This document shows, one piece after another, positions 4,183 to 57,186 of a stretch of DNA of 64,000 nucleotides. How positions within the stretch are numbered: the first letter of the stretch is position 1; the number at the start of each line of letters is the position of its first letter. The stretch is from a virus (taxonomy: Duplodnaviria; Caudoviricetes). The notes below the pieces were generated by a model. It had not been told where the DNA came from. It made no database searches and saw nothing but the letters and a program-made list of their open reading frames with translations. The position numbers and the translations under genes are program-made. The stretch is taken from IMG/VR virus record IMGVR_UViG_3300027255_000165; one strand, written 5' to 3'.

Positions 4183-4818
4183 CTAATCCTGGGTTGAAGG
4201 TTGCAACGACAGTAAATACATTAAGAGGAAGGCAGCGTCAACCAAGTCATCTAAAGGTTTCACTAGTTTTTTCTCATCACGAAAGGGTTGACAAAAAGAA
4301 TGAAATTCAGAGGACTGAAAGGAGTCACTGTCAACAAATGCTTTCCACATCGCTTCTTTGTTCATGTTACCTTTGCCAGCAAACTTCTTGATTGCGGTTG
4401 GAGCAATAACGTCAAGGTCTTCAACGATTAAGGTTTCAATCAATTTACATTTAAGGATTGATGCAGCTGCTTGAAGATCCAGTAGTGAATTGGTACCAAA
4501 TCTAGAAGTACCATAAGAAGCACCCTCAAAATAAATCCTGTAAGGTTTAGATGGATCAGTGTGCTCAATGATCATTGCCATTAGATTTTCGGCAATGTTA
4601 ATATGTCGATTAACTCTAGTGAGTTCGTGTTTAGAAATATCAGGTTCGTCTTGAAAAACAAGACTAACGTCCGATAGCTTGGCCATCTCTTGTTGAGCGG
4701 CTTTATCCTTCTTTGTAGATTTTGTAGAATTTAGGTATGAAATCCAATGAGGTTTCCCATCCTTTAAAACACAAACACCTGGAGAATTAATAGAAAAGTC
4801 GATTCCGACGTAGTTCAT
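4183..4818 (-). CDS. RuvC-like (RNase H fold) nuclease / Holliday junction resolvase
   Basis: N-terminal YVGIDFS, central FEG, AIKKFAGKGNMNK, C-terminal DDLVDA. Confidence 0.75.
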   Translation of the reverse strand: MNYVGIDFSINSPGVCVLKDGKPHWISYLNSTKSTKKDKAAQQEMAKLSDVSLVFQDEPDISKHELTRVNRHINIAENLMAMIIEHTDPSKPYRIYFEGASYGTSRFGTNSLLDLQAAASILKCKLIETLIVEDLDVIAPTAIKKFAGKGNMNKEAMWKAFVDSDSFQSSEFHSFCQPFRDEKKLVKPLDDLVDAAFLLMYLLSLQPSTQD

Positions 4819-5189
4819 TAGAACATGTTTTTACCAAGACTTGCACCTAGAGCGGCGCCGACAAGTCTTGAAGTTAATAGATCGTACATCAAGCCCTTTT
4901 CAATACCAAGCGTCTTAGCCAGAAGTTTACCAACAGATTTACCAAGTGCAAAACCAGTTAGACCTCCTAAAATAGAACCCAGAACACCTTCATTCGTAAG
5001 TTCAACGTTAAACTTATCGATATCGTACGTACCGTCTTCGTTTTTATATTCAGCAAGAAATGCGTCAACAGCTGCGTCAACTCTTTCTTCGAGTTCGTCA
5101 GTCCATTCAGATTGCAATGACTCGTTAAGGGCATTCAATTCTGCCTCTGTAACGTTCTGTGCTTCAAGATATTCGATAAAAGTTCTCAT
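4818..5189 (-). CDS. glycine-zipper protein, putative internal virion protein
   Basis: N-terminal MRTFIEYLEA; C-terminal hydrophobic GVLGSILGGLTGFALG glycine zipper; AATATATA motif upstream. Confidence 0.5.
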   Translation of the reverse strand: MRTFIEYLEAQNVTEAELNALNESLQSEWTDELEERVDAAVDAFLAEYKNEDGTYDIDKFNVELTNEGVLGSILGGLTGFALGKSVGKLLAKTLGIEKGLMYDLLTSRLVGAALGASLGKNMF

Positions 5190-5193
5190 ACTC

Positions 5194-5201
5194 TATATAT
5201 T
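5194..5201 (-). promoter_or_regulatory. putative late promoter AATATATA
   Basis: Motif 4 nt before ATG 5189. Confidence 0.55.
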
Positions 5202-14318: not shown

Positions 14319-14326
14319 TATATATC
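14319..14326 (-). promoter_or_regulatory. putative late promoter GATATATA
   Basis: Intergenic, upstream of the 1471-aa structural gene. Confidence 0.6.
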
Positions 14327-22959: not shown

Positions 22960-23231
22960 TACTTAACTTTCAAATAATCTTTTGGCATTGCAAATGCCTT
23001 AAACAGTTTTAGTTGTGTTACCGCTCTTGTTGAAGTAACAAACATGTCTTGAATGAACTCAATGAAATCTTTCATTGTTTCCTTTCTTTGAATGTGAGGT
23101 GATAGACCCTTGGTCATAAGGTCGTATGAATAGTCCCTACCTTCATTCAGTTTATAATCGTTGGCACTCTTGGTTATGTTATACTTTTTACCAAGCTTGT
23201 ACTTATAAAGGTCTTTGTATAGATCGCTCAT
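22959..23231 (-). CDS. hypothetical baseplate-region protein
   Basis: 90 aa ORF coupled by stop/start overlaps on both sides. Confidence 0.55.
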   Translation of the reverse strand: MSDLYKDLYKYKLGKKYNITKSANDYKLNEGRDYSYDLMTKGLSPHIQRKETMKDFIEFIQDMFVTSTRAVTQLKLFKAFAMPKDYLKVK

Positions 23232-25060
23232 TAGATTGACTTTCTATTTGCTGCCTGAATTTGAGTGAAGACAGTTCTTGGAATTGGTTTAGCAAAGCTT
23301 ACTGAAAGCGCAGCTGCTTCTCCAATCTTAGCATCATCGGCAATTGTTGAACCTGTTCTATCAGCCCATCCACCTCTAAACATCGCAACGTCTTCTTTAC
23401 TCAGTGCAATATCTCCAAATTCATCTAGACCAGTGATAGACATTCTAACGTCAGCTGGAATTCCATCAGTGGCATTAAAGGTAATAGTGTTTGAAGTTAC
23501 AGTTTTCTTAAAGAATAGAATTCTGTTCTTACCATTGCCAACATCTTCTAGAACGGGGGTTTGTGGAGTGATAGTTGTCTGTGTTACTGTGTATGATCCT
23601 GTTCTTAGAGCGTCTTCTTCTGACTTAGATAGAAACTGAACGTTAACTGAGTCAATGCCATCGACTCCTTCTAGAAGGGCGACAATGTCAGACTTAGGCA
23701 ATCTATCTCTTCTAGTGATAGACATTAAATACGTTGAAATCTTTCTTCTGATTTCAGCTAGAAGTTGAATTTCGTCAAATCCTTCAAAGTGACGAACCCA
23801 AATGTTCATAGCATACATTTTTGGCTTTGGATCAACGAATGAGATCTCAGTCGTTACCATCTGCTTACCTGATAACTCAATTGCTTCTCTAATGCCCTCA
23901 AGTTCAGATTGTGTAAAAAAGAATTCTTCGGTTGGAACGGAGAAATAATCTTGATTTGACTTTAGTTTTGACTTAACGTCAGGGAGAAGGAAAAGATAGA
24001 TGATATTATCGTCATCTAAATATTGATCATCAGTCTGTGAATATGCATCAACATAAGAGAACATATTGTATCTTGCTAGGAAGTGTTCGTAATTGTCTGG
24101 AGTTGCAAGTACAAATGACTTAGATGTAAGAGGCGCAATTAGTTTTGTAAATTCAATTGATTCAGGATCTGCTCCCATTTTAGGAGAGGCGGTACTTCTG
24201 ATTTCCAATAGATTATTAAGGTCGTATTCATTTCCTAATGCATCATATCCTGGATCAACAAACTTATATGAAATATCAGGTGAATCGCCCAGATTTCCAG
24301 ATCTGCCATTGGTTTTAATGTAATTAACTTCGATTACCGCACCGTTGTTAGGAATCTGTCCAAAGTTACCATTACCAAAGAATAAATCAATACCACCGGT
24401 GATACCAGTCTTAATAACTACTCCCTTTGTAGAAGCGTTCATGTCATATAGAGATTCATATACTGTCCATTTCTCACCATTAACTGCAACGTCGACAATA
24501 TCGTGGGCTGTAACACCTCCGGTTTGAATGTTAAAAGTTTGAAAAGGTTCACCTGACCCTGTGACATTCTGTGCTTGGGTTTCACCCTGAACGACAGGAA
24601 CTTTAATATATCCTGCTAGGCCTTTTGAAATGCTAATTAAATCGGTCGAAGATCTTAATAAGTAAATTAAAGAGTTGTTATTAGATCTAATCTGAGAATT
24701 GGAATTAATATAAAGGGTATTTCCTGCAATTTCAGATTGCATACCCGGCTTCCATGTTATTTCAATCTCTCCCATCGCAGCAAATCCTCTAGTAGGATCA
24801 TGGCCAGCCAATCTAGCTAGTCCATAGATGGATTCAGGCTGTTGAGCCGTGATAATGTTTTGTTCAACAGTCGCGTCTTCAATGTAATAGAAGATCATGT
24901 TAGTAAGCTCTGACGCTACTTTAACCATCTGAGAAAACGGAGATGCAGTTGTGAAAATGCTTTCAGCATTACCGTAAACCCTGCTCAAATAGGTTCTAAC
25001 GTCCTGTTGAATCTGTGTAACTGCAACTCTAGCAGTGTCAAGAAAATTGAATTGGGCCAT
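23231..25060 (-). CDS. baseplate wedge subunit, T4 gp6-like
   Basis: EQNIITAQQPESIYGLARLAGHDP, FFGNGNFGQIP, GADPESIEFTK, TPDNYE match gp6/baseplate-J features. Confidence 0.8.
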   Translation of the reverse strand: MAQFNFLDTARVAVTQIQQDVRTYLSRVYGNAESIFTTASPFSQMVKVASELTNMIFYYIEDATVEQNIITAQQPESIYGLARLAGHDPTRGFAAMGEIEITWKPGMQSEIAGNTLYINSNSQIRSNNNSLIYLLRSSTDLISISKGLAGYIKVPVVQGETQAQNVTGSGEPFQTFNIQTGGVTAHDIVDVAVNGEKWTVYESLYDMNASTKGVVIKTGITGGIDLFFGNGNFGQIPNNGAVIEVNYIKTNGRSGNLGDSPDISYKFVDPGYDALGNEYDLNNLLEIRSTASPKMGADPESIEFTKLIAPLTSKSFVLATPDNYEHFLARYNMFSYVDAYSQTDDQYLDDDNIIYLFLLPDVKSKLKSNQDYFSVPTEEFFFTQSELEGIREAIELSGKQMVTTEISFVDPKPKMYAMNIWVRHFEGFDEIQLLAEIRRKISTYLMSITRRDRLPKSDIVALLEGVDGIDSVNVQFLSKSEEDALRTGSYTVTQTTITPQTPVLEDVGNGKNRILFFKKTVTSNTITFNATDGIPADVRMSITGLDEFGDIALSKEDVAMFRGGWADRTGSTIADDAKIGEAAALSVSFAKPIPRTVFTQIQAANRKSI

Positions 25061-25072
25061 GTCAGACGTTTA

Positions 25073-25429
25073 TTAGTTTACATACACTTGAACTTGATAC
25101 TTCGAGTTAAGTGTAATGTTTATTTCTGCAATATCTCTAACGGTTCCCTTATAAAAAGAAACATTAGTCGATACTCTATATTTTCCAGCCAGTGGTACAT
25201 ATCTTTGAATTTGATCCTCAATGGTTGAAGTAACCATACTCTCATTGTAATTAAGAGTGTATATCAAATCTTCAAGATTTGCTCCAAAATCTGGTTCGCC
25301 AAGAACATCACCTTTTCTAGTGAACAGAATAGTTTCAATCTGCGTGATGACCTTTGAGATCTCACTCTCAGAATGAACCTTATATGGATCGTAGTTTGGA
25401 TCTCCTTCTGCTCTTACGTAAAATTCCAT
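25073..25429 (-). CDS. baseplate wedge protein, gp25-like
   Basis: IETILFTRKGDVLGEPDFGANLEDL (GPW/gp25 motif). Confidence 0.8.
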   Translation of the reverse strand: MEFYVRAEGDPNYDPYKVHSESEISKVITQIETILFTRKGDVLGEPDFGANLEDLIYTLNYNESMVTSTIEDQIQRYVPLAGKYRVSTNVSFYKGTVRDIAEINITLNSKYQVQVYVN

Positions 25430-25438
25430 GGCTATCTT

Positions 25439-25446
25439 TATATATC
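25439..25446 (-). promoter_or_regulatory. putative late promoter GATATATA
   Basis: Intergenic, upstream of gp25-like gene. Confidence 0.6.
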
Positions 25447-26290: not shown

Positions 26291-27583
26291 TTAGTTTATT
26301 TTTTTAGAGTTTATCACCTCGGTCTTATCAAACTTGGCGAACTTCTCGCTATATTTACCCTCTCTAAAAATACCACCCGACATAGTACCTTTAAAAACAC
26401 TGTCGGTTCCAAATACATAGCAGTTATTTAGAGTGCAACTGTTATGAGTGTAGCATGATTGAACCTTTGACCCATCAACCTGAGTCGACTGGTAAAGATT
26501 ACTTCGCTGAATATCAGATCCATTAATTTGGCATCTGTAAAAATCGCTTAAGATTGCTTCGCCTCTAAACTTGCAATCTACGAATTCATAACCCTCCAAA
26601 CCATGGGCTCCTAAGAAAACACCATCTTTAACCTGAACCCTTGAACGATCAGTGTCGTAGTTAATATGACCCTCTGACATTCCACCCTCTGAAATAAGTT
26701 TTACAACTTGGGTTTTAATGTTAGACCAGAACATGTCAATAGTTTCACCGTGGTTCTGAAGATCAAGAGTAAAATCAATCTTTTGAAAATTCTTAAAGTT
26801 ACGATGATCCTTGTAAAGGTCGTAAATCTTTTTCATGTTTGACATGATTCTTCTTAACTCAAGGCGATTAAGCTCTGTTAAATCAGGATTCTTACATGTG
26901 TTCCAGAGTTGAATTAGAAAACTGTCAAGTAAATGAAGAATTGTTGAAGTCTTCTTTTCATAATCTTTACCGCCCAGGTATCTAAATTCTAGGTACCCTT
27001 TCTCCTGTTTTAAGAAGTTAACACCATAATACTTGGTGTCTGGATATTTAAACTGCATTTTAGAGATGTGATTTTCATCAAAGTTAAACAGCTCATTCTT
27101 AGGCAGAACGTACTTGATTGACTTGGCGTAAACAAGATCTCTACGTTCAGGAAAGTGTTTATACACCTGTTCTTCTTTAAAGTCCAAGATGAACTTTAAA
27201 GTGTTCATGTGAGTGATAAAGTTTGAACCCACAATCTTTTTGTCAAACGATACATTAAGGTGAATACCCGCTCTATCAGTAGTGTGACCGTTTTCCGAGA
27301 TCCAATGTAACATCTTAATGATGATCAGTCTGGCATCAGGATACGGCAATGCACCAGTCACCATCTCAATGAGACCGGCACCACCTGACATATCAGGCTC
27401 CAACTTAAACACCTTATCGGACGGTTGAAAATCTGAGTGAGCCTTTTCTTCTACCTGAATCTTACGACCCAGATATTCACCGACCATCTCAGCTGTTTTT
27501 TCAACACTGTGATTCGAGTAAAACTCAAATTCAATGCCGCAAAATGAATGAAGGAGTATATCCTTGTTTGCTTCGTTTAACAT
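26291..27583 (-). CDS. putative amidoligase (COOH-NH2 ligase) with C-terminal beta-helix-like repeats
   Basis: CGIEFEF, IEMVTG, AGIHLNVSF, KYYGVN, YLEFRYLGG motifs. Confidence 0.7.
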   Translation of the reverse strand: MLNEANKDILLHSFCGIEFEFYSNHSVEKTAEMVGEYLGRKIQVEEKAHSDFQPSDKVFKLEPDMSGGAGLIEMVTGALPYPDARLIIIKMLHWISENGHTTDRAGIHLNVSFDKKIVGSNFITHMNTLKFILDFKEEQVYKHFPERRDLVYAKSIKYVLPKNELFNFDENHISKMQFKYPDTKYYGVNFLKQEKGYLEFRYLGGKDYEKKTSTILHLLDSFLIQLWNTCKNPDLTELNRLELRRIMSNMKKIYDLYKDHRNFKNFQKIDFTLDLQNHGETIDMFWSNIKTQVVKLISEGGMSEGHINYDTDRSRVQVKDGVFLGAHGLEGYEFVDCKFRGEAILSDFYRCQINGSDIQRSNLYQSTQVDGSKVQSCYTHNSCTLNNCYVFGTDSVFKGTMSGGIFREGKYSEKFAKFDKTEVINSKKIN

Positions 27584-27612
27584 GCAGTAGACACTATCTT
27601 ACTATTTAAGTT

Positions 27613-27620
27613 TATATATC
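27613..27620 (-). promoter_or_regulatory. putative late promoter GATATATA
   Basis: Intergenic, upstream of amidoligase/neck genes. Confidence 0.6.
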
Positions 27621-27645
27621 TACCGCACCGGGTAGCGGTTTAGAC

Positions 27646-27677
27646 ACAAGCTCAGTTACCGAAATAACTGAGCTTGT
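27646..27677 (-). terminator. strong hairpin after S1 gene (13-bp perfect stem)
   Basis: acaagctcagtta-ccgaaa-taactgagcttgt; no U-tract on the minus strand, so terminator function is uncertain. Confidence 0.5.
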
Positions 27678-27708
27678 AACTAAGTAGTAATTAAGTAGTA
27701 ACTAAGAA

Positions 27709-29055
27709 TTATGCACCGATAACTCTCAAGAATACTTTCTTGGTATCTTCATCAACCTTAGTAACCTCTACTACAATTTCCTGACCCTTTTGGAAAGTGT
27801 CTCTCAATACTGTACCTTCTGGGAACTCAGAGATGTGTGCCATACCTACCACTGAACCGTGAACGGCGATGAATAAACCGTAATCTTTAATTGATCTGAT
27901 GGTAGCGTTTTCAACCAGCGTCGGTAACTTTAAACCTTTAGTGAATTCTTCCCATGAGTTATCAACCTTCATCTCAGACTTTTCCTTTTGAGTCAAGATG
28001 ATCTTTTCGTTACTGACAATTTCTTTGATTTTGAAGGTAACTTCATCACCAGGATTTACAGTACCATTTTTGTGAGAATTGAATAACTCAGGTGATAGGT
28101 CATTAACGTGAATCATACCCGTCAAACATGTATTAAATTCAACGAATACACCGTATTTTGCAGTACCTGTTACGTTACCTTTAATTTCAGAATCGATATT
28201 AGCTTGTAGGTTTTCAATTTCTCTAGGAATCATTGCCTGTAAGTATTTTCGGTGAGAAACCACGATTGTACCTCTCTTAGACGAGAATGAATCAGGTACC
28301 ACGTACATCTGAGCACCGACAATTGAACTAAAGTCATGCAGTTTATTAATACCCGCAAGTGAACCGGGCATAAAACATTGGATACCTTGAACGAGTACAA
28401 GGTAACCTCCACCCGGGATCATCTCTTTAATAGTACCTAGGTATGCTGTATCTCCATCGTCAGCTGCTTGTCTAAGTTCTGCAAACACCTTTTGTTTAGT
28501 TCCTTCAGTGATAGAAGCAACTGCGTATTCTCTAACGTCAGTTTTATCACTTAAAACTTTTACAGCAACTTCGTCTCCAGGTCTAACGTCTGCAATAACG
28601 TCTCTATCTTCTCTTGACAAATCAATGTACAACATTTCACGATAATTAATATCGACTGTTGCCCATTTTTCACTCATCGAGTGGATTCTTCCAACTTCAA
28701 CAGCACCTACGGTTAATTCAGAGATACCGTCGTCAAATTGAACGGTAGACAATAAATTATACATTTCTTGAGCATAAGGCTCGTGACAGTACACCACGTC
28801 TTTGTGGGAACCTGTCTTAATCTTAGTGTTGGGTTTGAGTTTTCGGTTGTAATAAGACTCGTATCTGTCCCAATCAAATTCTCCAGTTGGAGTTAAGAAT
28901 TCGTCTGTAGATGAATCAAATTCATCAAGGTTGACTTCTACCTCTTCTTTTTCAACTTCAGTTACCTCTACTTTAATTTGTTTTTTGTTAGAGTTTTCTT
29001 GAAGTCTTCTTCGCTTTTGAGTACCATTATTGGTACCGTTGTTTTGATTTGTCAT
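27709..29055 (-). CDS. rpsA: ribosomal protein S1 homologue (4 S1 domains)
   Basis: S1 repeats incl. CFMPGSL...GTIVVSHRK, KYGVFVEF...GMIHVNDLS, DYGLFIAV...GMAHISEF...VTKVDEDTKKVFL. Confidence 0.85.
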   Translation of the reverse strand: MTNQNNGTNNGTQKRRRLQENSNKKQIKVEVTEVEKEEVEVNLDEFDSSTDEFLTPTGEFDWDRYESYYNRKLKPNTKIKTGSHKDVVYCHEPYAQEMYNLLSTVQFDDGISELTVGAVEVGRIHSMSEKWATVDINYREMLYIDLSREDRDVIADVRPGDEVAVKVLSDKTDVREYAVASITEGTKQKVFAELRQAADDGDTAYLGTIKEMIPGGGYLVLVQGIQCFMPGSLAGINKLHDFSSIVGAQMYVVPDSFSSKRGTIVVSHRKYLQAMIPREIENLQANIDSEIKGNVTGTAKYGVFVEFNTCLTGMIHVNDLSPELFNSHKNGTVNPGDEVTFKIKEIVSNEKIILTQKEKSEMKVDNSWEEFTKGLKLPTLVENATIRSIKDYGLFIAVHGSVVGMAHISEFPEGTVLRDTFQKGQEIVVEVTKVDEDTKKVFLRVIGA

Positions 29056-29095
29056 TTATGTTTAATTTAAAGGTGTAAAATACTAATTATATAAC

Positions 29096-29560
29096 TCACT
29101 TCTTTTTATAGCGGTCGTCTCCCTTGACAATAGCACCTGCAACAGCCCTATCAACTGCTTTTCCAAGCGCTTGCATAAGAGTTAGTGTGAGAGCATGGGA
29201 TAAATTTGCTACGTTATTAATACCGTCGGCTTTTGCCTTTTCATTCGCGGCTTGAATGTCGGGATTATTGTCTTTGGTTTTCGTCTTTTTAATCGTATCC
29301 ATGCCGAAGGCAGATGAAATAGCCTTGTACCAATCGAGAGGAGCGTCGCCGTAGATAGGGTTGGCCTTTAGTTGTTCCCTATACAATTTATCTCTGTCAG
29401 TGGTCTTTTTAGGATTAGGTTGTGATCCGCCTCCTTTTTGGCCGCCTCCACCGCCTCCACCGCCAGTATTTGCAGCGTTATCGGTGTTCATGTTATTGCC
29501 ACCGCCGCCATCGGTTGCATTTCCGACTCCCGTGTTGTTTGTATCTTTACCGTCAGCCAT
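29096..29560 (-). CDS. hypothetical protein with poly-Gly N-terminal region
   Basis: 154 aa, GGGGGGGGQKGGG tract. Confidence 0.55.
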   Translation of the reverse strand: MADGKDTNNTGVGNATDGGGGNNMNTDNAANTGGGGGGGGQKGGGSQPNPKKTTDRDKLYREQLKANPIYGDAPLDWYKAISSAFGMDTIKKTKTKDNNPDIQAANEKAKADGINNVANLSHALTLTLMQALGKAVDRAVAGAIVKGDDRYKKK

Positions 29561-29561
29561 C

Positions 29562-30314
29562 TTAGTTAACTTTTACCTTTGTTGATTTGGTAGGTGGAAT
29601 CTTAGCAGCAATAACGGGAATTGAAGAAGTCAAATTCGTAGCCGCAGTTGCAGCTGCTGTAGCAGCGGTCCCCAACGGCACTGCAAGCGGAGCAGCACTC
29701 AAAATAGGAAGTGAGGCTGCCGCAACACCTGCCGATGCGAGAGCTGTCATGTTTGTTGATAGATTGGTTAGATCAATTGCTAGCTTTTGCAACGTGTTCT
29801 TAATTTCGTTAAGGGCATCTTCATTTTTATCACCTAACACGGCAGGTTCTTCTGAACCTCCACCCATTCCAACGAGATGCAATAGATCAGCGGCCTGAAA
29901 TAGGCCTTCACCGGCTGAACCAATCAACTTAACACCCTCTGATGAGTTCCAATACAGTTGCATTCTCGATGGGTCATAGAAAAGTGAGACCACTCCCATT
30001 GCACCATTCGCAGATACCATGTCTGAAACTTCTTGACGTGCCTTAGCCTGAAAGAAATAAACTGGAGTGTATAAGTTTCCGTTATCAAATCTAACAGAAA
30101 CAATGTCACCTACGGCTGGAACCGCAAATTGACCATGTGAATCATTAGAACCGCAAAGGGCCCATGGAAGATCTTCATCAGGAATTAGATCAAACTTACC
30201 AAAAATGCGTATCCTACAACGGCCCTGATTTGATGGATCTTCGTTATTAACGATTTCTCCTAACCAGTGCGAATCTCTTAAATTATCTTGAAAAAGCTCT
30301 TTAATAGAGTCCAT
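29562..30314 (-). CDS. baseplate central spike protein, gp5/VgrG OB-fold (no lysozyme domain)
   Basis: EIVNNEDPSNQGRCRIRIFG, LPWA, FAVPAVGDIVSVRFDNGNLYTPVY. Confidence 0.8.
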   Translation of the reverse strand: MDSIKELFQDNLRDSHWLGEIVNNEDPSNQGRCRIRIFGKFDLIPDEDLPWALCGSNDSHGQFAVPAVGDIVSVRFDNGNLYTPVYFFQAKARQEVSDMVSANGAMGVVSLFYDPSRMQLYWNSSEGVKLIGSAGEGLFQAADLLHLVGMGGGSEEPAVLGDKNEDALNEIKNTLQKLAIDLTNLSTNMTALASAGVAAASLPILSAAPLAVPLGTAATAAATAATNLTSSIPVIAAKIPPTKSTKVKVN

Positions 30315-31495
30315 TATTCGTAGTTGTTTCCAAGGTTAGACTTCGTGTTAGCTGCTTCGTTTAGATTATTTATCATTGGAAATATGGAAGCAATCGAACC
30401 CTGTCTTAATGCCGCTCCGACGGTGGCACCTTCAGCTCCGAATATGTTTGTCACAATTGACTGTTTAAAGGAAGTTGCGGCATCTTTTGCAATGGCCTCA
30501 CTCTGTCCAAATATGTTATCTACAGCTCCTCCTAAACCGCCTGCATAGCTGTCAACTTGATTAATGGCCTGTTGATATGCCTGTTCAAGATCACTACCAT
30601 ATACGTTGACAGGCTTGCTAATAGCGTTTAGTGGATTATTCTCTCTAATAGCACCTGTTAAACTGTCAATTGCACTGTTAGTTATTTGACCAACGTCCTG
30701 CGACAATCTATCACCGACACCCTGGATTTTAGTTCTAGCGTCACTATCACTGCTTACGCCTAAATCACCTGTACTTTCTGTCATCAACCCCTGTAAATAT
30801 GAAGTTGCAGTTTTCTTAATAGTTTCGTAACTAATTTCAATCTTAGGTGAAGGGCTTTCAGGCGCTGCGTTGCTTAATGTTTCAAATGTTTCTTTAGCAG
30901 ACTTAATATTGAACTCGCAGAAATTAAATTCATACTGAAACAACGGCTTAAAGTCACCTGATATTTCAGCGTTCTTTGTTTCAGATCCAAGCAAACCCTT
31001 TTTGAATTCTGTGTTAATGTCTCTAATCTCAGAAACCATAATCCACATTCTAAATCCTCTAATATTCTTTGGTAGAACCTGGGTCCATGCTGCAAAATCA
31101 TAAACCGAATCCCTATATAAATCCATCAAACCAGAAATTGCAAGATTGATTGATTCATTGCAAGTGATAGTTAGTTTGGCCTCATCACCTCCCCAATAAG
31201 GCTCAGTCATGTTATAGTCTAAAACCCTTGTCATTCCATCTAATGAAACCCAATACCATGGCATTTCACGATTAATCAAGAGCATGGTATCAACAAATCT
31301 TTCAAGCTTATCGGCTCTTTCAGTTTCTTTATAATGCTCTCTTAGAGTTTTAACGGCAATATCTTTATTAAAAAGAGGAGACGTAGTATCAAATAAAATT
31401 GTAAAGCTCAAATACGTAGGATCTTGATAAGGGTTCTTTGAACTCTTACCTAGTAATCCTTTTCTAAATTGTATTTGATTTGTACCAGTTGCCAT
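30314..31495 (-). CDS. tail tube-fold baseplate protein (gp48/gp54-like, putative)
   Basis: LTITCNESINLAISGLMDLYR; FQYEFNFCEF; position next to gp5. Confidence 0.45.
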   Translation of the reverse strand: MATGTNQIQFRKGLLGKSSKNPYQDPTYLSFTILFDTTSPLFNKDIAVKTLREHYKETERADKLERFVDTMLLINREMPWYWVSLDGMTRVLDYNMTEPYWGGDEAKLTITCNESINLAISGLMDLYRDSVYDFAAWTQVLPKNIRGFRMWIMVSEIRDINTEFKKGLLGSETKNAEISGDFKPLFQYEFNFCEFNIKSAKETFETLSNAAPESPSPKIEISYETIKKTATSYLQGLMTESTGDLGVSSDSDARTKIQGVGDRLSQDVGQITNSAIDSLTGAIRENNPLNAISKPVNVYGSDLEQAYQQAINQVDSYAGGLGGAVDNIFGQSEAIAKDAATSFKQSIVTNIFGAEGATVGAALRQGSIASIFPMINNLNEAANTKSNLGNNYE

Positions 31496-31499
31496 ATCC

Positions 31500-31507
31500 T
31501 ATATATT
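31500..31507 (-). promoter_or_regulatory. putative late promoter AATATATA
   Basis: Motif 4 nt before ATG 31495. Confidence 0.55.
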
Positions 31508-35386: not shown

Positions 35387-35394
35387 TATATATC
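35387..35394 (-). promoter_or_regulatory. putative late promoter GATATATA
   Basis: Upstream of the baseplate block. Confidence 0.6.
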
Positions 35395-38447: not shown

Positions 38448-39182
38448 TTAAGCTTGCTCTACTTCTTCGCCTTCTGAATCCCATGCTTCCATCATCTCAT
38501 CGATCTTCTTAGAGTAAGACTCTTTTAGACCATTACATGCAGCTTCATAAGCTTCTTGTGTGATGTCTTCTTTTGATTCTTTTAGGGCATTTGCGGCCAT
38601 CATTGCCATAAGAGCTGCATTTTCTTTTAAGTAAGATTCGATAGTGTGAGTATCGTGCATATCATTTTCCCAGACTTTAGCTTCAGACTTAACTTTTTCG
38701 TAAAGTTCTTTGACCATTTCTTCAACAGTTACTGGTGCTTCAGCCTCCTCAGACTCTTCGCCTTCTTCAGACTCTTCGCCTTCTTCAGACTCTTCCTCTT
38801 CAGGAGATTCTTCAGCTTCATGCTCTTCTTCGTCATCAGCGATCTGAGTTTCTACCTCGTCTTCGTTTTCTTCTTCAGACTCAGTAACCTCTTTAGCTCC
38901 TTCTTCACCTTCGTCTTCAGGTGCTTCTTGATCGCCTTCTTCTGTTTCTTTGTCGTCCTCTGAGTAAACCTCTTCAGTATCGGCATCCATGTCCTCTACC
39001 TCCTCGCCAGCTCCGTTATCTTCGTCGCCTTCTGGTACATCGGCCTCAGGTTGGTCTGCAGTAACTACTTCTTCACCTTCACCCTGTTCTTCAGGTTCAC
39101 CCATAGCTACGGTGTCCTTTTCGATCTCTTCTGCGCGATCTAAAGATTCAACGTATTCTTCAAATGTTTTAAGTTTTGCCAT
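38448..39182 (-). CDS. highly acidic protein, putative prohead core/internal head protein
   Basis: Very Glu/Asp-rich; N-terminal KLKTFEEYVES; GATATATA upstream. Confidence 0.5.
   Translation of the reverse strand: MAKLKTFEEYVESLDRAEEIEKDTVAMGEPEEQGEGEEVVTADQPEADVPEGDEDNGAGEEVEDMDADTEEVYSEDDKETEEGDQEAPEDEGEEGAKEVTESEEENEDEVETQIADDEEEHEAEESPEEEESEEGEESEEGEESEEAEAPVTVEEMVKELYEKVKSEAKVWENDMHDTHTIESYLKENAALMAMMAANALKESKEDITQEAYEAACNGLKESYSKKIDEMMEAWDSEGEEVEQA
38749..38795. repeat. 18-bp tandem repeat (about 2.6 copies) encoding EEGEES
   Basis: tcagactcttcgccttct twice plus a partial copy. Confidence 0.85.
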
Positions 39183-39211: not shown

Positions 39212-39219
39212 TATATATC
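39212..39219 (-). promoter_or_regulatory. putative late promoter GATATATA
   Basis: Upstream of the acidic protein. Confidence 0.6.
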
Positions 39220-41209: not shown

Positions 41210-41217
41210 TATATATC
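41210..41217 (-). promoter_or_regulatory. putative late promoter GATATATA
   Basis: Just downstream of a terminator, upstream of the 522-aa gene. Confidence 0.6.
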
Positions 41218-48424: not shown

Positions 48425-48886
48425 TTAAAATAGGGCCCGCTCTTTCTCTTTCCCAAACTGATAGTGATACGTTAAAGCATCGTGATGTACGATGTTTCGA
48501 TTGACAATCTCTAAAATTTCAGCAGTTGGATTAGGACCCGCGAGTCTTGCTCTACATTCATTAACATTGTCTTTCATGAACTCAACGCCGTATGTAGTGG
48601 ATAGAGCTTGTTCAAGTGTACAACCTGAACGTTTCATCTTACGAATGACAACCTCTGAAAGAAATTGACCGTCTCCGCATGAGTTATCTAAGAATGTCTT
48701 AGTTGGGTCTGAGAATATTGTAGGATCTTGCTCTTCAAGCTTATCAAGCATTTCTTGAACTAAGGGCGTAGGTGTGAATACTTCAGCAGTCTGTTTAACT
48801 CTGAGCTTGTCACGGTCAATACCTGACATGTATTCTCTATTACGAGCATGTTGAATGTATAAATTAAGCATGCTTATGATTCTCAA
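48425..48886 (-). CDS. N6/N4 DNA methyltransferase, SAM-binding half (motifs X, I-III)
   Basis: TAEVFTP, FLDNSCGDGQFL, YGVEF, HHDAL; no NPPY motif. Confidence 0.75.
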   Translation of the reverse strand: MRIISMLNLYIQHARNREYMSGIDRDKLRVKQTAEVFTPTPLVQEMLDKLEEQDPTIFSDPTKTFLDNSCGDGQFLSEVVIRKMKRSGCTLEQALSTTYGVEFMKDNVNECRARLAGPNPTAEILEIVNRNIVHHDALTYHYQFGKEKERALF

Positions 48887-50111
48887 CTGTATTTTTAATT
48901 AAATTAATTTCACCTTCAGAAAATTCAAAGAATTCGAAAATAGCTTTGTCTGATTGCATTAAACTAGAATCAATCATGGGTACATATGGATATGCACTAT
49001 CCAGGTGTTGATCCATATTGTATGTAATAATCAAATACTTAACAAAAAATGTTGAAGTCACATAATATAAAAATGCATTTGCTTTTTCAACTGAATTAAA
49101 TGGAATACCAGCCTTTAAGTTACCCGCCTTTTTACCGCCTCGTGATTCAGATCTTAAAGGTTTTTTAGAAACAAAATTATTAAGACTATTGATAAAATTA
49201 TATCGATTTTCAAATTTCCTAGTAATTCCATCAGTAAATGTAGTAGACAAATATCCAGTTCCTCCCATCCAATTCAATGAAACATAGTGCGATTCTTCTA
49301 CATTATTATTAATTACATCACTAATAAAACTAGATACTTTGTTTTTAATTTTGGTCTCTATTGATTTAATTAAAGTATAAGATCCAATATGGTTAACATC
49401 TCGTGGATCATTAACTATATAAGATTCATTTATTTTATCAAATCTATTAAATTCAATTTTAGATGATGTTTTGGTCTTATCAATGTGCGTTATAGCAATA
49501 GGATAATAGGTTCCCTTTTCAGTTGGAAAAAGATCTTGAAAATTATAAAAGTCAAATGAAACAAAATGAGTACCGATCTTTTCTTTTAGCTTTGAATCGG
49601 TCTTAAAGTTAGAGTTTTCTCGTAAGTGTAACAACCAGTTAGTCGGATGTACAAAAATCATTTTACCATCTTCTTTCAAAAGATCATATCCATTATCTAG
49701 GAAATCTAAATGCATACGCTTTTTATATGGAGGATTACCCAAAACTACATCAAAGTGCTTAGCGTATGCTTTCATAATAGTTTTATTTTTATTGAACTTA
49801 GATTCAAAGATTGTCTTAAACCCCGATTTAATAAGTTCATTATTTTTGAATGAACTATTATTATACACTGTAATTTGAGATTGTTTCAAACCAATCTTAA
49901 GTAATGCTGCGGCAATTTCAACGTTGTACATTACAAGAACTTTACAATTATGGATGTTTTTAATCTTAGACAACTTTTTAATTATTTTTTGTACAGTTGC
50001 ATCACATGTATAGGTGCCTTGAAGATCATCTGCTATTCCATTAACATAATTAAACTTGCCAAAAATATCAGACATATAATCTTCTACTTTGAATTTTTGA
50101 TACGTTTTCAT
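48864..50111 (-). CDS. DNA methyltransferase catalytic half plus putative target recognition domain
   Basis: DVVLGNPPY, FIFVHP-like MIFVHP; no intact motif I. Confidence 0.75.
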   Translation of the reverse strand: MKTYQKFKVEDYMSDIFGKFNYVNGIADDLQGTYTCDATVQKIIKKLSKIKNIHNCKVLVMYNVEIAAALLKIGLKQSQITVYNNSSFKNNELIKSGFKTIFESKFNKNKTIMKAYAKHFDVVLGNPPYKKRMHLDFLDNGYDLLKEDGKMIFVHPTNWLLHLRENSNFKTDSKLKEKIGTHFVSFDFYNFQDLFPTEKGTYYPIAITHIDKTKTSSKIEFNRFDKINESYIVNDPRDVNHIGSYTLIKSIETKIKNKVSSFISDVINNNVEESHYVSLNWMGGTGYLSTTFTDGITRKFENRYNFINSLNNFVSKKPLRSESRGGKKAGNLKAGIPFNSVEKANAFLYYVTSTFFVKYLIITYNMDQHLDSAYPYVPMIDSSLMQSDKAIFEFFEFSEGEINLIKNTVENHKHA

Positions 50112-50143
50112 TTGCTTTATCTTTTAATTATACTACTAATATA
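50107..50143. repeat. 37-nt direct repeat, copy 1 (copy 2 at 51734-51770)
   Basis: ttcatttgctttatcttttaattatactactaatata identical in both copies. Confidence 0.9.
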
Positions 50144-50193: not shown

Positions 50194-51738
50194 TTATGCA
50201 ATAAGTCCAAAGATGAGATCTACCGTTGACATCTCTTTCAAAAGCATAGCATTCTCTTCGTCTTCAATCTGAGCAATCATTTCATCAAGTGGTTCAGCAG
50301 CTGTAGGAATTGAACGTTTCAACTCGTTAAAAGCATCCAATCCTTTTTTTGTAGGAATACCATTGCCGGAACCGCTTGTAATTACATCCTCAGCTGGATT
50401 AAAACCAGTACTACGAAGATGATTAATCAAATACATGGTGTGCATTGCGTCTTCTTCATTATCTGTTGAAAGAATTGGAACAATTACCCACGCATATGGT
50501 TTGATCATTTGCTTAAGCGACTCTATATTCTTTGGATCAATGATTCCGTCCTCGTGAATAGCTTTGCGATCCATGCCGATTAGACGTGCAGCGCGGCCTA
50601 GTGTTTGCATAAACTTACTTTGACCCATACCGCGCAAAAACAATACGCCTGTAATTCCAGGAACATCAATGCCCTCGCTAAGAATGTCATAATGGATAAT
50701 GATCATTCTAGAGTTTTTGTTTGCACCATCTTCTTTTAATGCTTTTAAGAAATCTTGGCGAGTTACACGAACACCATTAATCCAATTATCTACCTCAATA
50801 TTTGATGCAACTGCATAAACATTTACACCCATTGCAATAGCCCTTAACATTTCAGGAGATTCAATGAGTTTCTTAATGTCTCCAGTACCGTTTGAAGCTA
50901 CTAGCATTTTTGGTTGCACCATACCTAATTCATACGCATGTTGCTTAAATGATTCACTAACAATCATACCCAATGAATCGGTAATTGATTGCATAGTATA
51001 ATCTTTTTTACCTTGGATATTAGTCACAAAGTGCATACGTGGACGTAACATCAAACCCAAATCAATGGCTTCGCGGGGAGTTAAGGTATAGATTGACTTA
51101 CCATAAATTGATTCGTTATTCATTCCACGGCCATCTGAGTTTCGTGTATGTTTTGCAGTGGCTGTAAAAAAGTATTTACGTTGTGCTGGGCGCTTTGCAA
51201 TTTCATGAAATTGATTAGATACAAGATACTGTGCTTCGTCATTTATCATGACTGAGATCTTTCCCTTTCGATTATTGATTACATTAAAAAGACGATCTGA
51301 TGAGTGGTATGTAGATACAAAAATTACAGGTACTCCACGTTTTTTACAACTCTTAAGTTTGTTTTCGATGTCCTCTGTTTTAGTCGTAGATTCTATCAAA
51401 CTAAAGGGGAAGTTTGAAGGAGAACTCATACGGATTTCATCAAGCTCATCTTGTGAAGGGGCTGCTCCTGAATGGATCATCATGTATTCTGCCTCAACTG
51501 AAGTATTGTGCATAAATTTGTAAACTTCAGTCAAAAGCTGGTATGAAAGCATAATTCGGGGTGCATTGATTAAGTGGGCAGAGAATCCTGGATTTTTAGC
51601 GATATGATCGGCGATTACAGCTGCGGCCACTACCGTTTTACCAGTACCAGTCGGCATTAGTATTTGGCCAAGTTTATTAGTTTGACACTGATAAAATGCT
51701 TCTTTCTGATGAGGATAGAGTTCAATTACGTTGTTCAT
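50194..51738 (-). CDS. SF2 helicase/ATPase of restriction-modification (Res/Type ISP-like) type
   Basis: MPTGTGKT, NDEAQ, FTAT, LSEGIDVP, QTLGRAAR. Confidence 0.8.
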   Translation of the reverse strand: MNNVIELYPHQKEAFYQCQTNKLGQILMPTGTGKTVVAAAVIADHIAKNPGFSAHLINAPRIMLSYQLLTEVYKFMHNTSVEAEYMMIHSGAAPSQDELDEIRMSSPSNFPFSLIESTTKTEDIENKLKSCKKRGVPVIFVSTYHSSDRLFNVINNRKGKISVMINDEAQYLVSNQFHEIAKRPAQRKYFFTATAKHTRNSDGRGMNNESIYGKSIYTLTPREAIDLGLMLRPRMHFVTNIQGKKDYTMQSITDSLGMIVSESFKQHAYELGMVQPKMLVASNGTGDIKKLIESPEMLRAIAMGVNVYAVASNIEVDNWINGVRVTRQDFLKALKEDGANKNSRMIIIHYDILSEGIDVPGITGVLFLRGMGQSKFMQTLGRAARLIGMDRKAIHEDGIIDPKNIESLKQMIKPYAWVIVPILSTDNEEDAMHTMYLINHLRSTGFNPAEDVITSGSGNGIPTKKGLDAFNELKRSIPTAAEPLDEMIAQIEDEENAMLLKEMSTVDLIFGLIA

Positions 51739-51763
51739 TTGCTTTATCTTTTAATTATACTAC

Positions 51764-55179: not shown

Positions 55180-57186
55180 TTAACGTAACGAAAGTTTCTG
55201 ATCATTTTTGGTGTAGGTGATAGTGTACACCTTTTCACCTGCTACGATTTCACCATCCAGGATACCATCCGCAAGAATGTCTTCAACGTACTTTTGAATT
55301 GCACGCTTTAGAGGACGTGCACCGTATGCAGGGTCATATCCTTCTTTGACTAGGAAGTCTTTCGCTTGTTTAGTGAACTTCAATCGAATGTCTTGTTCAA
55401 ACATGCGTTCACATAAGTCTAGGAGTTCGATGTCAACAATCTTCATCATGTGTTCGTCTGTCAACTGGTCGAATAGAACGATATCGTCTAGGCGATTCAA
55501 GAACTCAGGAGTAAACTTATTCTTAAGTTCCTTCTTAATGATGCCTTCCATCTGTGCTTTCTCAGTTGCAACATTCGAACGACTAGTAAATCCAATACCT
55601 CCTCCAAATTCAGCTGCTTTCTTAGCACCTACGTTCGATGTCATAACAATGATGGTATTAGTAAAGTCAACAGTGCGACCGAGAGAGTCGGTCAAGCGTC
55701 CATCATCAAGAACTTGAAGAAGAACGTTAAAAGTATCAGGGTGTGCCTTTTCAACCTCGTCAAATAGTATGACAGAATAAGGCTTACGACGAACTGCTTC
55801 GGTTAATTGACCGCCGTCTTCGTGGCCAATATATCCTGGAGGCGCTCCAGTCAATCGAGATACATTGAACTTTTCTTGGTATTCAGACATATCAATTCGA
55901 ATCATAGCATCCTCGGAGCCAAACATGTATTCAGTCAGTGCCTTTACAGTCTCAGTCTTACCAACTCCTGTTGGACCCAAGAACATGAATGAACCGATCG
56001 GCTTCTTGTGAGAAGATACTCCAACGCGTGAACGTTTAATAACCTTTGCAAGAGCATCAACTGCATCATCTTGGCCGATGATCTTTTTCTTTAACCCTTC
56101 ACCAAGCAGACGAATCATTTTGCTTTCATCACCTGAAAGGCGTGACAATGGAATGCCTGTTTGTTGAGATAGAGTTTCGGCAATAACCTCGGCGTCAACT
56201 TCTTTGCGATCTTCTTTTAAAGATTGCTCCCATTCTTTGATTGACTTTTCAAGATCTTTGCGCTTATTCATTTCCTGATCTCGGAACTGTGCAGCTTTTT
56301 CATAATCCTGCTGTGATACACTTTCAAGCTTATCCTGCTTTAATAGTTCGGCTTCTTTCTCCATCTTTTTAATAGAAGTAGGAACCTTAATTTCTTGAAG
56401 GTGAATCTTAGCACCTGCTTCATCCATCAAATCGATAGCCTTGTCTGGGAGTTCACGAGAAGTGATATATCTGTCAGACAATTTGACACAAGCTTCAATA
56501 GCTTCGGGAGTGTACTGGACAACGTGATGATCCTCATACTTATCCTTAATTCTTTCTAGGATTTGAATCGTATCCTCGATCGAAGGTGCATCAATGAATA
56601 CTTCTTGAAATCTACGCGTCAATGCACCATCATCCTCAATGTTTTCACGGTACTCATCTAATGTAGTAGCACCAATACACTGGACTTGTCCTCTTGCAAG
56701 GGCAGGCTTTAAAATGTTTGAAGCATCTAAAGAACCACTTACACCGCCCGCACCCACTATCGTGTGAATTTCATCAACGAAGACGATAATGTTAGGATTA
56801 GCCTTTAGCTCATCAACTATATTCTTCATTCTTTCTTCAAATTCACCACGGTATTTGGTACCCGCAACGATGATAGTCATGTTCAAAGAAACTAATCGTT
56901 TTCCGATCAAAGTTCTTGCAACCTTTCCTTCTACGATTCTCTGTGCAATGGCTTCAACAACTGCAGTTTTACCAACACCTGGATCTCCAAGGATGATTGG
57001 GTTATTTTTCTTGCGACGAGCAAGAATTTGACAAATTCTCAAGATCTCAGCATCTCTGCCAATGATTGGATCTAATTTGCCCTCCTTGGCCATTAGGGTG
57101 AGATCTTCACCGAACTGATCTAGGTATGGAGTTGAACCGGCCTTCTTAGGACCTCGTCTTGATTCGTTTGGATCTTCAAATGCCAT
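55180..57186 (-). CDS. clpC: ClpC-type AAA+ unfoldase lacking the N-terminal domain
   Basis: Two AAA modules (GDPGVGKT/FVDEIH; GPTGVGKT/FDEVEK), pore loops KYRG and GYIG, UVR-type M-domain DYEKAAQFRD, IGF loop. Confidence 0.9.
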   Translation of the reverse strand: MAFEDPNESRRGPKKAGSTPYLDQFGEDLTLMAKEGKLDPIIGRDAEILRICQILARRKKNNPIILGDPGVGKTAVVEAIAQRIVEGKVARTLIGKRLVSLNMTIIVAGTKYRGEFEERMKNIVDELKANPNIIVFVDEIHTIVGAGGVSGSLDASNILKPALARGQVQCIGATTLDEYRENIEDDGALTRRFQEVFIDAPSIEDTIQILERIKDKYEDHHVVQYTPEAIEACVKLSDRYITSRELPDKAIDLMDEAGAKIHLQEIKVPTSIKKMEKEAELLKQDKLESVSQQDYEKAAQFRDQEMNKRKDLEKSIKEWEQSLKEDRKEVDAEVIAETLSQQTGIPLSRLSGDESKMIRLLGEGLKKKIIGQDDAVDALAKVIKRSRVGVSSHKKPIGSFMFLGPTGVGKTETVKALTEYMFGSEDAMIRIDMSEYQEKFNVSRLTGAPPGYIGHEDGGQLTEAVRRKPYSVILFDEVEKAHPDTFNVLLQVLDDGRLTDSLGRTVDFTNTIIVMTSNVGAKKAAEFGGGIGFTSRSNVATEKAQMEGIIKKELKNKFTPEFLNRLDDIVLFDQLTDEHMMKIVDIELLDLCERMFEQDIRLKFTKQAKDFLVKEGYDPAYGARPLKRAIQKYVEDILADGILDGEIVAGEKVYTITYTKNDQKLSLR

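Follow-up and report, generated by a model that had tools for sequence, protein, structure and literature searches.

A four-domain homologue of ribosomal protein bS1, with a putative Bacteroidia-type anchor, in the baseplate module of a Caudoviricetes phage

Genes for ribosomal protein S1 have been known in huge phages without Shine-Dalgarno (SD) sites since 2020, when Al-Shayeb et al. listed rpS1 among the genes of huge phages, observed that its carriers rarely have SD sites, and proposed a role for the protein in initiation 'on or off the ribosome' (PMC7162821). In the preceding year, Mizuno et al. (2019) had put S1 aside as ambiguous. Here, we describe such a gene in IMG/VR record IMGVR_UViG_3300027255_000165, a 64,000-nucleotide (nt) stretch of DNA from a large, uncultured marine virus (Duplodnaviria; Caudoviricetes), which we call the window and in which positions are counted from the first letter. 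The gene (27709..29055, on the minus strand, like every feature of the window given below) encodes a bS1 homologue of 448 amino acids (aa) plus stop, as delimited by the list of open reading frames (ORFs) and by Pfam, NCBIfam, and PDB alignments, and is a well-supported further member of the known group. What is new here is that candidate residues of a Bacteroidia-type ribosome anchor can be named in the phage protein from its sequence.

Two cellular bS1 proteins provide the structural frame for this comparison. In E. coli bS1, Phe5, Gln7, and Phe9 contact uS2, and Lys43 enters the zinc pocket of uS2 (PMC10123108). In a 2026 cryo-electron microscopy (cryo-EM) study of Flavobacterium johnsoniae, the first 42 residues of bS1 form a helix-loop-helix bound stably to uS2 and uS8, of which residues 4-40 were placed, and the aromatic helix FLANFNWHNF (residues 11-20) contacts uS8; the bS1 N-terminus and bS21 are neighbours on the platform of the Bacteroidia 30S subunit (PMC13000457). 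F. johnsoniae bS1 also enhances initiation on an mRNA that lacks an SD (PMC9976891). With the Bacteroidia proteins (Bacteroides P0409 and P0463, and F. johnsoniae bS1), the phage protein shares an F-[DN]-W-x-x-[YF] helix and a second helix ahead of domain 1 (D1), a D1-D2 pair bearing the D2 signature and, in loop 2 of D1, a basic residue, the canonical S1 domains that follow, and an SD-less translation system. It differs from them in having four rather than six domains and 448 rather than 598 aa, at ~23-28% identity, in an 18-residue basic insertion between the two helices and an extra disordered leader of ~53 aa, in scores below all curated rpsA cut-offs, and in the location of its gene, which lies in a phage baseplate module.

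Other described systems resemble the phage protein in one respect or another. The bS21 of Bacteroidetes phages sits in the structural gene block, is expressed with it, and has been proposed to enter host ribosomes late, favouring phage mRNAs (Chen et al. 2022; PMC9723584). Like bS21, S1 belongs to the small-subunit proteins of initiation and is here encoded by a phage among its virion genes, but bS21 is unrelated to S1, and it is for bS21 that co-expression with structural genes has been seen in metatranscriptomes. The use of D1-D2 as a protein-binding platform in phage biology is familiar from host S1 co-opted as a subunit of Q-beta replicase and as the activator of T4 RegB, where the host protein is borrowed, whereas here the phage encodes its own copy. 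Finally, the S1 of low-GC Gram-positive bacteria (NF005208/PRK06676) has four domains, a similar length, and a collinear alignment with the phage protein (residues 109-443 against positions 11-345 of 391); the phage protein nevertheless scores 114 bits against a cut-off of 368, its N-terminal motif points to the Bacteroidia type, and no phage relative is nested among the cellular sequences of our tree, which included no Firmicutes.

Domain architecture and N-terminal anchor

The four S1/OB repeats described in the initial annotation are found as four OB folds, collinear with bS1 domains 1-4, in an AlphaFold2 model built with 71 relatives as input (pLDDT 85.6, pTM 0.63), at residues ~119-181, 205-267, 291-355, and 379-445. 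The Pfam S1 match (E 1.3e-20) is limited to two stretches, which correspond to D3 and D4; the NCBIfam rpsA model TIGR00717 is collinear with residues 113-443 (model positions 15-340 of 516), PDB chains of E. coli bS1 align collinearly across D1-D4, and the best Foldseek matches to the model are E. coli bS1 on the 30S subunit (9gut_B, E 2.5e-25). The tandem S1/OB domains of bS1 (RpsA) are thus seen by the structural model, Pfam, the rpsA models, and E. coli bS1 alike. The six-domain organization of Gram-negative-type bS1 is absent, with four domains in 448 aa against six in the 598 aa of Bacteroides bS1. To call the protein truncated, as the initial annotation did, is correct as far as the domain number of the host protein is concerned; the tree is silent on a six-domain ancestor.

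The individual domains match cellular bS1 in different ways. D2 (residues 198-280; 28216..28464) carries the signature GGY..V..GI.CFMPGSL and is an ortholog of the cellular D2, as its BLASTP matches in three cellular bS1 proteins (E 3e-9 to 3e-7) fall solely in their D2 region (~140-204). D1 (residues 113-192; 28480..28719) is a divergent OB fold that, by itself, gives a weak match to cellular D1; it has Arg139 at the position of E. coli Lys43, where 61 of the 71 relatives have R or K. The noncanonical D1-D2 ribosome-binding module of bS1, including the D2 signature, is therefore present, and it is followed by two canonical RNA-binding S1 domains, D3 (residues 284-360; 27976..28206), which contains the best Pfam S1 stretch at 286-355, and D4 (residues 374-448; 27712..27936), recognized by Pfam, NCBIfam, BLASTP, and the model, both of which match cellular D3-D6 roughly equally. 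This pattern of matches suggests that the protein is the ribosome-binding half of bS1 joined to two generic RNA-binding domains. A PHROGs search returned no family for the phage S1 protein. The gene is under strong purifying selection: measured against an 87%-identical homologue (L004), dN/dS is 0.067 over the whole gene, with 0.30 in residues 1-53, 0.085 in residues 54-112, 0.055 in D1-D2, and 0.04 in D3-D4.

The protein begins with a poorly conserved, disordered extension (residues 1-53; 28897..29055), in which pLDDT falls below 50 at residues 1-14 and 21-48 and which is missing in many relatives that begin at the motif following it. The initial annotation had called this extension acidic; residues 28-53 are, whereas the first ~27 residues are basic and N/Q-rich. 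Next comes helix A (residues 59-69; 28849..28881; modelled at 62-69), the putative counterpart of the uS8-contacting helix of Bacteroidia bS1. It carries EFDWDRYE (residues 59-66), within which lies the FDWDRYE first noticed in this sequence, and conforms to a family motif A of [DE]F[DN]W[DE]xYE, with F60 in 56 and W62 in 46 of the 71 relatives. A basic loop (residues 70-87; 28795..28848; KLKPNTKIKT...) stands opposite a gap in the hhalign alignment with Bacteroides bS1 and is an insertion specific to the phage family; within the family, the Asn of its LKxN is invariant across 18 aligned sequences. Motif B (VYCHEPYAQEMYNLL) and helix B (residues 88-104; 28744..28794; modelled at 95-104) lie where bS1 has its N-terminal, uS2-binding helix. 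The family form of motif B is VY[SC]xEPYAQE[LM]Y (residues 88-99 here), with Y94 in 50, Q96 in 49, and Y99 in 55 of the 71 relatives. The distance between the 95-104 helix, with its conserved Y-A-Q-E-[LM]-Y, and D1 fits the uS2-binding helix, and Y-A-Q recalls F5-A6-Q7 of E. coli, but the register of helix B relative to Phe5 and Phe9 is ambiguous.

The likeness of this N-terminus to that of Bacteroidota S1, put forward in the initial annotation, is upheld by direct alignment. The Bacteroides bS1 N-terminus reads ...APIEDFNWDAYENGE...., and EFDWDRYE pairs with its IEDFNWDAYE; hhalign matches motif A to Bacteroides bS1 residues 9-22 (probability 86%, P 5e-6) and the N-terminus plus D1, collinearly, to residues 8-114 (probability 97%, E 1e-10). 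The aromatic helix F-N-W-x-x-[FY] of the Bacteroidia type is thus present at the sequence level. The motif is rare elsewhere. Among 120 six-domain bS1 proteins from many phyla, collected in a search of proteins longer than the phage family, one carries F[DN]W, and its N-terminus is 98% identical to the NCBI 30S ribosomal protein S1 of Bacteroides sp. It is absent from all 50 bS1 proteins sampled in the phylum to which a 'Cytophagia' metagenome-assembled genome (G003) belongs, and this genome and 60 genomes of its phylum have a different N-terminus (EYSEEEY...LYxxTL) lacking the FNW motif. A profile search of genome contigs with the cellular bS1 alignment returned no member of class Bacteroidia, and the F. 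johnsoniae motif is that of PMC13000457. Searches of the PDB with the N-terminus plus D1, or with the motif profile alone, gave nothing meaningful, and a profile of the family alignment (A1) matched generic S1 domains and nothing else. Because of the profile alignment, the rarity of the motif elsewhere, and the F. johnsoniae cryo-EM structure, motif A appears to be the counterpart of a Bacteroidia-specific ribosome contact. Loss of the uS2-binding surface of domains 1-2 would have spoken against the initial annotation; judged from the anchor helices, the basic residue at the Lys43 position, and the D2 signature, this surface appears to be retained at the sequence level. A literature search found no paper describing a Bacteroidia-type anchor in a phage S1.

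We also predicted a complex of the phage N-terminus plus D1 with uS2 and uS8 of F. johnsoniae. The complex score was 0.60 (0.62, 0.60, and 0.59 in individual runs), against 0.00 for the best of three controls, and the runs share at least 80% of contacts, with partner pLDDT of at least 74. In the benchmark, 58 of 80 solved complexes scored high enough to pass, as did 2 of 110 mismatched pairs, and those that passed at 0.60 or less comprised 7 of the 80 solved complexes together with both mismatches. The prediction lends weak support to docking on uS2 and uS8, and since bS1-uS2 complexes have already been solved, the pass may reflect likeness instead of binding.

The phage family, its origin and its host

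A search of 5.8 billion proteins returned more than 120 clusters at 46-100% identity to the phage protein, all 405-452 aa long, from marine and other metagenomes, including estuarine ones, in which the family is abundant, on contigs of up to 166 kb. An exhaustive search extended this to a broader set of four-domain proteins of 360-430 aa, down to ~30% identity, with the first six-domain cellular bS1 at about E 1e-41, and IMG/VR holds eight close relatives. Among named phages, tblastn puts nearest, at 30-35% identity, the huge phages LR756500-LR756504 and LR745206 together with the Lak phages of Prevotella, in line with the earlier remark that S1 genes occur in huge phages. Like them, the window combines a multi-S1-domain protein with an SD-less phage genome, and the proteins belong to the same family and to one clade; the predicted host range of the huge phages is Bacteroidota, and the Lak-B5 copy has both motifs A and B. 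The window's subfamily differs from huge-phage rpS1 in its size (425-452 aa), its longer leader, and its fixed place in the baseplate module, whereas S1 lies far from the gp6-like gene in most huge-phage genomes; the Lak copy has three OB folds, and LR756500, LR756501, and LR756504 lack motif A. The homologue of Prevotella phage Lak-B5 (L148, 2947-4074) reads SFDWSPYDD... at motif A and VYSHESYAQDLY at motif B, has a long insertion in the D1 region, and ends after the third OB fold, making it a three-domain variant.

A phylogeny against cellular RpsA, one of the checks proposed in the initial annotation, gave a clear split and no placement of the origin. In a tree of 47 rows, 22 phage proteins (including those of Lak and the LR7565xx phages) are separated from 25 cellular bS1 proteins by one long branch (SH-aLRT 100), and Bacteroides bS1 groups with sequences of the Fibrobacteres-Chlorobi-Bacteroidetes (FCB) group inside the cellular side. 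Approximately unbiased (AU) tests rejected neither a union of the phage proteins with the FCB group (p 0.48) nor one with Bacteroides alone (p 0.43), an AU p above 0.05 being no proof of a clade. Because neither joined tree is rejected, the OB domains leave the origin of the family unplaced, and a positive pointer to a putative Bacteroidia source comes solely from the N-terminal motif.

The host can be approached through the nearest relatives of the phage genes. The structural genes are nearest to those of huge phages and of Prevotella, Tenacibaculum, Chryseobacterium, and Flavobacterium phages, and the gp6-like wedge protein has its closest relatives in huge phages, followed by jumbo phages of Tenacibaculum, Chryseobacterium, and Flavobacterium. 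From the nearest phages of S1 and of the gp6-like protein, the host is most likely a member of Bacteroidota. A megablast of 24 kb against a phage collection found no match, and the window has no tRNA genes.

Baseplate module, leaders and expression signals

All genes of the window lie on one strand and have phage annotations, and the S1 gene is placed among baseplate genes. Upstream, a gene for a 154-aa protein (29096-29560), Gly/Asn-rich and of low complexity in its N-terminal half and without a family match, separates S1 from a gene for a gp5-like baseplate hub/spike OB-domain protein (29562..30314; Phage_base_V E 1.9e-6; phrog_430, phrog_37871), so that S1 is downstream of gp5, as first described, at a distance of two genes. 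Downstream follow an amidoligase-like gene (26291..27583), a gp13-like gene, and the baseplate wedge genes for gp25-like (25073..25429) and gp6-like (23231..25060) proteins, the last two recognized by Pfam and PHROGs. The order S1, a 419-435-aa protein, gp13-like, gp25-like, and gp6-like is kept in L001, where S1 is 46% identical, and in L002, where it is 37% identical, and the location in the baseplate module is kept on viral contigs at 37-100% identity. With its gene order shared by many viral contigs, the gene is encoded by a phage, as the initial annotation had it.

The product of the gene directly downstream of S1 is a 430-aa protein predicted to combine a glutamine-synthetase-like fold with a beta-helix at its C-terminus. 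Its counterparts (L001:11335-12639; L002:1532-2788) keep their adjacency with S1 down to 37% S1 identity. The protein falls into viral 'Amidoligase' clusters of the Atlas with a score of 0.97, PF12224 being found on 14-19% of their members, and its model (pLDDT 69) weakly resembles glutamine synthetase, YbdK, and PafA in Foldseek (E 3e-3); Pfam and PDB sequence searches gave no match. It may be a partner of S1 that ligates proteins or metabolites. We found no bS21 gene in the nearest viral record (17.9 kb) or, in a simple screen, among the small basic ORFs of the window, no hidden Markov model scan of small ORFs having been run. Elsewhere in the window, a Lon-like ATP-dependent protease of 668 aa (55180-57186; phrog_4871, E 1.9e-245) is encoded among replication and nucleotide genes, namely those for thymidylate synthase, helicase, and ATP-dependent DNA ligase, and an extremely acidic protein of 244 aa, with long Glu/Asp runs (38448-39182), has a TGATATATA motif ahead of its gene.

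The genome is SD-less, with an SD core (4-mer, -20 to -4) at 4 of 54 genes, and its leaders are G-poor and 40-56% A. Such SD-less, A-rich leaders fit initiation of the Bacteroidia type (PMC7797042).

The S1 gene is flanked by a promoter-like motif and a hairpin. The TATATA core of the motif (GTTATATAAT) lies at 29088..29093, 38 nt upstream of the start codon, and a similar motif precedes S1 in L001 and in L004-L006. There are 25 TATATA sites in the window, 10 of which are found 8-60 nt upstream of a start codon, where 1.35 are expected; plain ATATATA is not enriched window-wide (17 against 12.5 expected), and the enrichment is one of position upstream of genes. TATATA precedes the gp25-like gene, the S1 neighbour gene, and, as the variant GTTATATAAT, S1 itself. 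The extended form [GT]ATATATA occurs 10-38 nt upstream of many virion-module start codons, with sites at 5194-5200, 14319-14325, 25439-25445, 27613-27619, 31500-31506, 35387-35393, 39212-39218, and 41210-41216, among others, and resembles the TATAAATA-type late promoter of T4. Ahead of genes 4818..5189 and 30314..31495, TATATA begins 10 nt before the ATG (5189-5200 and 31495-31506), and these two genes may be transcribed with next to no leader. Leaderless mRNAs of E. coli are not known to require S1. An identical 25-nt sequence (GTAGTATAATTAAAAGATAAAGCAA) at 50112-50136 and 51739-51763, upstream of genes 48864..50111 and 50194..51738, appears to be a repeated promoter or leader of a type other than the TATATA motif.

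The strong hairpin reported after the gene is confirmed. It lies 32 nt past the stop codon (27640..27683), with a 15-pair stem, a 4-nt loop, and no U-tract, and its perfect 13-bp stem (27646-27677) exceeds in length every other perfect hairpin of the 64 kb. The whole 128-nt spacer downstream of S1 folds with z = -5.3. A terminator scan does not list it, as it has no T-run. The hairpin is kept with compensatory changes in L004 and replaced by a different hairpin plus a T7 run in L005, and L006-L009 have no hairpin after S1. Between the hairpin and the next gene (27584-27640), a further stem is predicted, along with a GATATATAAACTTAAATAGTAAGAT stretch that is conserved (L003, L004, and L006-L009). 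The shared TATATA motif and the hairpin suggest that S1 may be its own transcription unit under a virion-type promoter, and the motif shared with structural genes, together with the place of S1 in the virion module, may point to late expression. In four metatranscriptome libraries from estuary and salt marsh, S1 and its neighbour occur on short contigs of low depth, for which DNA carry-over is possible.

A possible role on the host ribosome

We consider the best explanation, to which we give a probability of roughly 0.55, to be that the phage protein acts as a 'mini-bS1' that docks on the host 30S subunit and captures phage leaders. The conservation of the anchor, the purifying selection, the family context, and the SD-less genome together make docking at the bS1 site of the host 30S likely. 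The mini-bS1 would comprise a disordered leader, a helix-loop-helix anchor, D1-D2, and two canonical RNA-binding S1 domains. In a Bacteroidia host, its Bacteroidia-type anchor would place helix A (FDWxxYE) on uS8 and helix B (YAQE[LM]Y) on uS2, so that the protein would dock on the 30S platform at the bS1 site and compete with, or add to, the loosely bound host bS1. The two RNA-binding domains, where the host protein has four, would then capture the unstructured, A-rich phage leaders, and translation would be biased toward phage mRNAs. The protein is probably made along with the virion proteins, at peak translation demand; more speculatively, the basic insertion conserved between the helices may supply extra contacts and so aid the competition. 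The initial annotation had drawn a similar picture, in which a truncated S1 expressed late replaces host S1 and biases ribosomes toward A/U-rich phage leaders. Its phage bS1 homologue, Bacteroidia-like N-terminus, and SD-less phage have stood up, whereas replacement of host S1, leader bias, and late expression are inferred.

Several observations weigh against docking by this protein. Motif A is lacking not only in the three LR7565xx phages named above but also in several distant relatives; the register of helix B is ambiguous; the two helices are separated by an 18-residue insertion that the host protein does not have; and D1 alone shows no significant similarity to any solved protein in a PDB search. 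The rpsA models are matched at 121-130 bits, and none of their cut-offs is reached, TIGR00717 standing at 121 bits against a cut-off of 577 and NF004952-6 having cut-offs of 524-918 bits. The complex score is a weak pass, the gene stands in a baseplate module, an unusual setting for a translation factor, and the long branch separating the family from cellular bS1 makes a changed function possible.

The phage S1 could also work off the ribosome, by chaperoning RNA, by protecting mRNA, or as the cofactor to some enzyme of the phage, as host S1 does for Q-beta replicase and T4 RegB. Host S1 binds Q-beta replicase through D1-D2, and PDB entries 4q7j and 4r71 are among the matches of the phage protein; Al-Shayeb et al. 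allowed for a role off the ribosome, and the long branch, the relatives without motif A, and the conserved neighbour of unknown role all agree with such a reading. We nevertheless regard it as unlikely, if the foremost of the competing accounts, for it leaves unexplained a uS8-contact motif under selection, a helix at the uS2 position, and a basic residue equivalent to Lys43. The same anchor evidence would serve equally a dominant-negative competitor, docked at the bS1 site and disabling host mRNAs that need full-length bS1, in effect a host shut-off instead of a positive choice of phage mRNAs. Two RNA-binding domains fewer than in the six-domain host protein, and two late-motif genes with almost no leader, would suit this role, yet canonical S1 signatures persist in D3 and D4, where purifying selection is strongest (dN/dS 0.04), a hint that RNA binding is important, and most phage genes carry A-rich leaders of the type bound by bS1; we find host shut-off improbable. 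Rather than acting by itself, S1 might form with its amidoligase-like neighbour a two-part module that remodels the ribosomal platform. Phage S1 would sit on uS2 and uS8 beside bS6, bS18, and bS21, and the ligase would covalently modify a platform protein or S1, as RimK modifies bS6, producing a ribosome specific to the phage in a lineage that normally keeps its anti-SD sequestered. We hold this for little more than a conjecture.

The conserved position within the baseplate module, the promoter-like motif common to S1 and structural genes, and the disordered, charged N-terminal leader would also suit a protein made late with the baseplate, packed into the virion, and ejected into the next host to act on its ribosomes at once. 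We give this very little weight: no structural-protein family matches the phage S1, the leader is its least conserved part and missing in many relatives, in huge phages, Lak among them, the homologue and the gp6-like gene are far apart, and phage bS21 likewise resides in a structural module without being structural. The warning by Mizuno et al. (2019) of cellular contamination in viromes, along with their setting S1 aside as ambiguous, raises the question of a cellular rpsA fragment or an assembly chimera. We rejected this reading, as the more than 120 clusters of 405-452 aa on contigs of up to 166 kb, the same gene order at 37-100% identity, the single clade apart from all cellular bS1 (SH-aLRT 100), and a window whose genes all lie on one strand with phage annotations make it extremely improbable.

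Phage-encoded ribosomal proteins blur the boundary between virus and cell. From its sequence, the phage S1 family appears to keep the contacts that Bacteroidia bS1 uses on uS8 and uS2 in the 2026 structure, which turns a vague idea of ribosome hijacking into a concrete proposal with named residues: F60, W62, Y65, Y94, Q96, Y99, and R139. Docking of the mini-bS1 on the host 30S, if true, would reveal how initiation is steered by large phages that infect SD-less bacteria.

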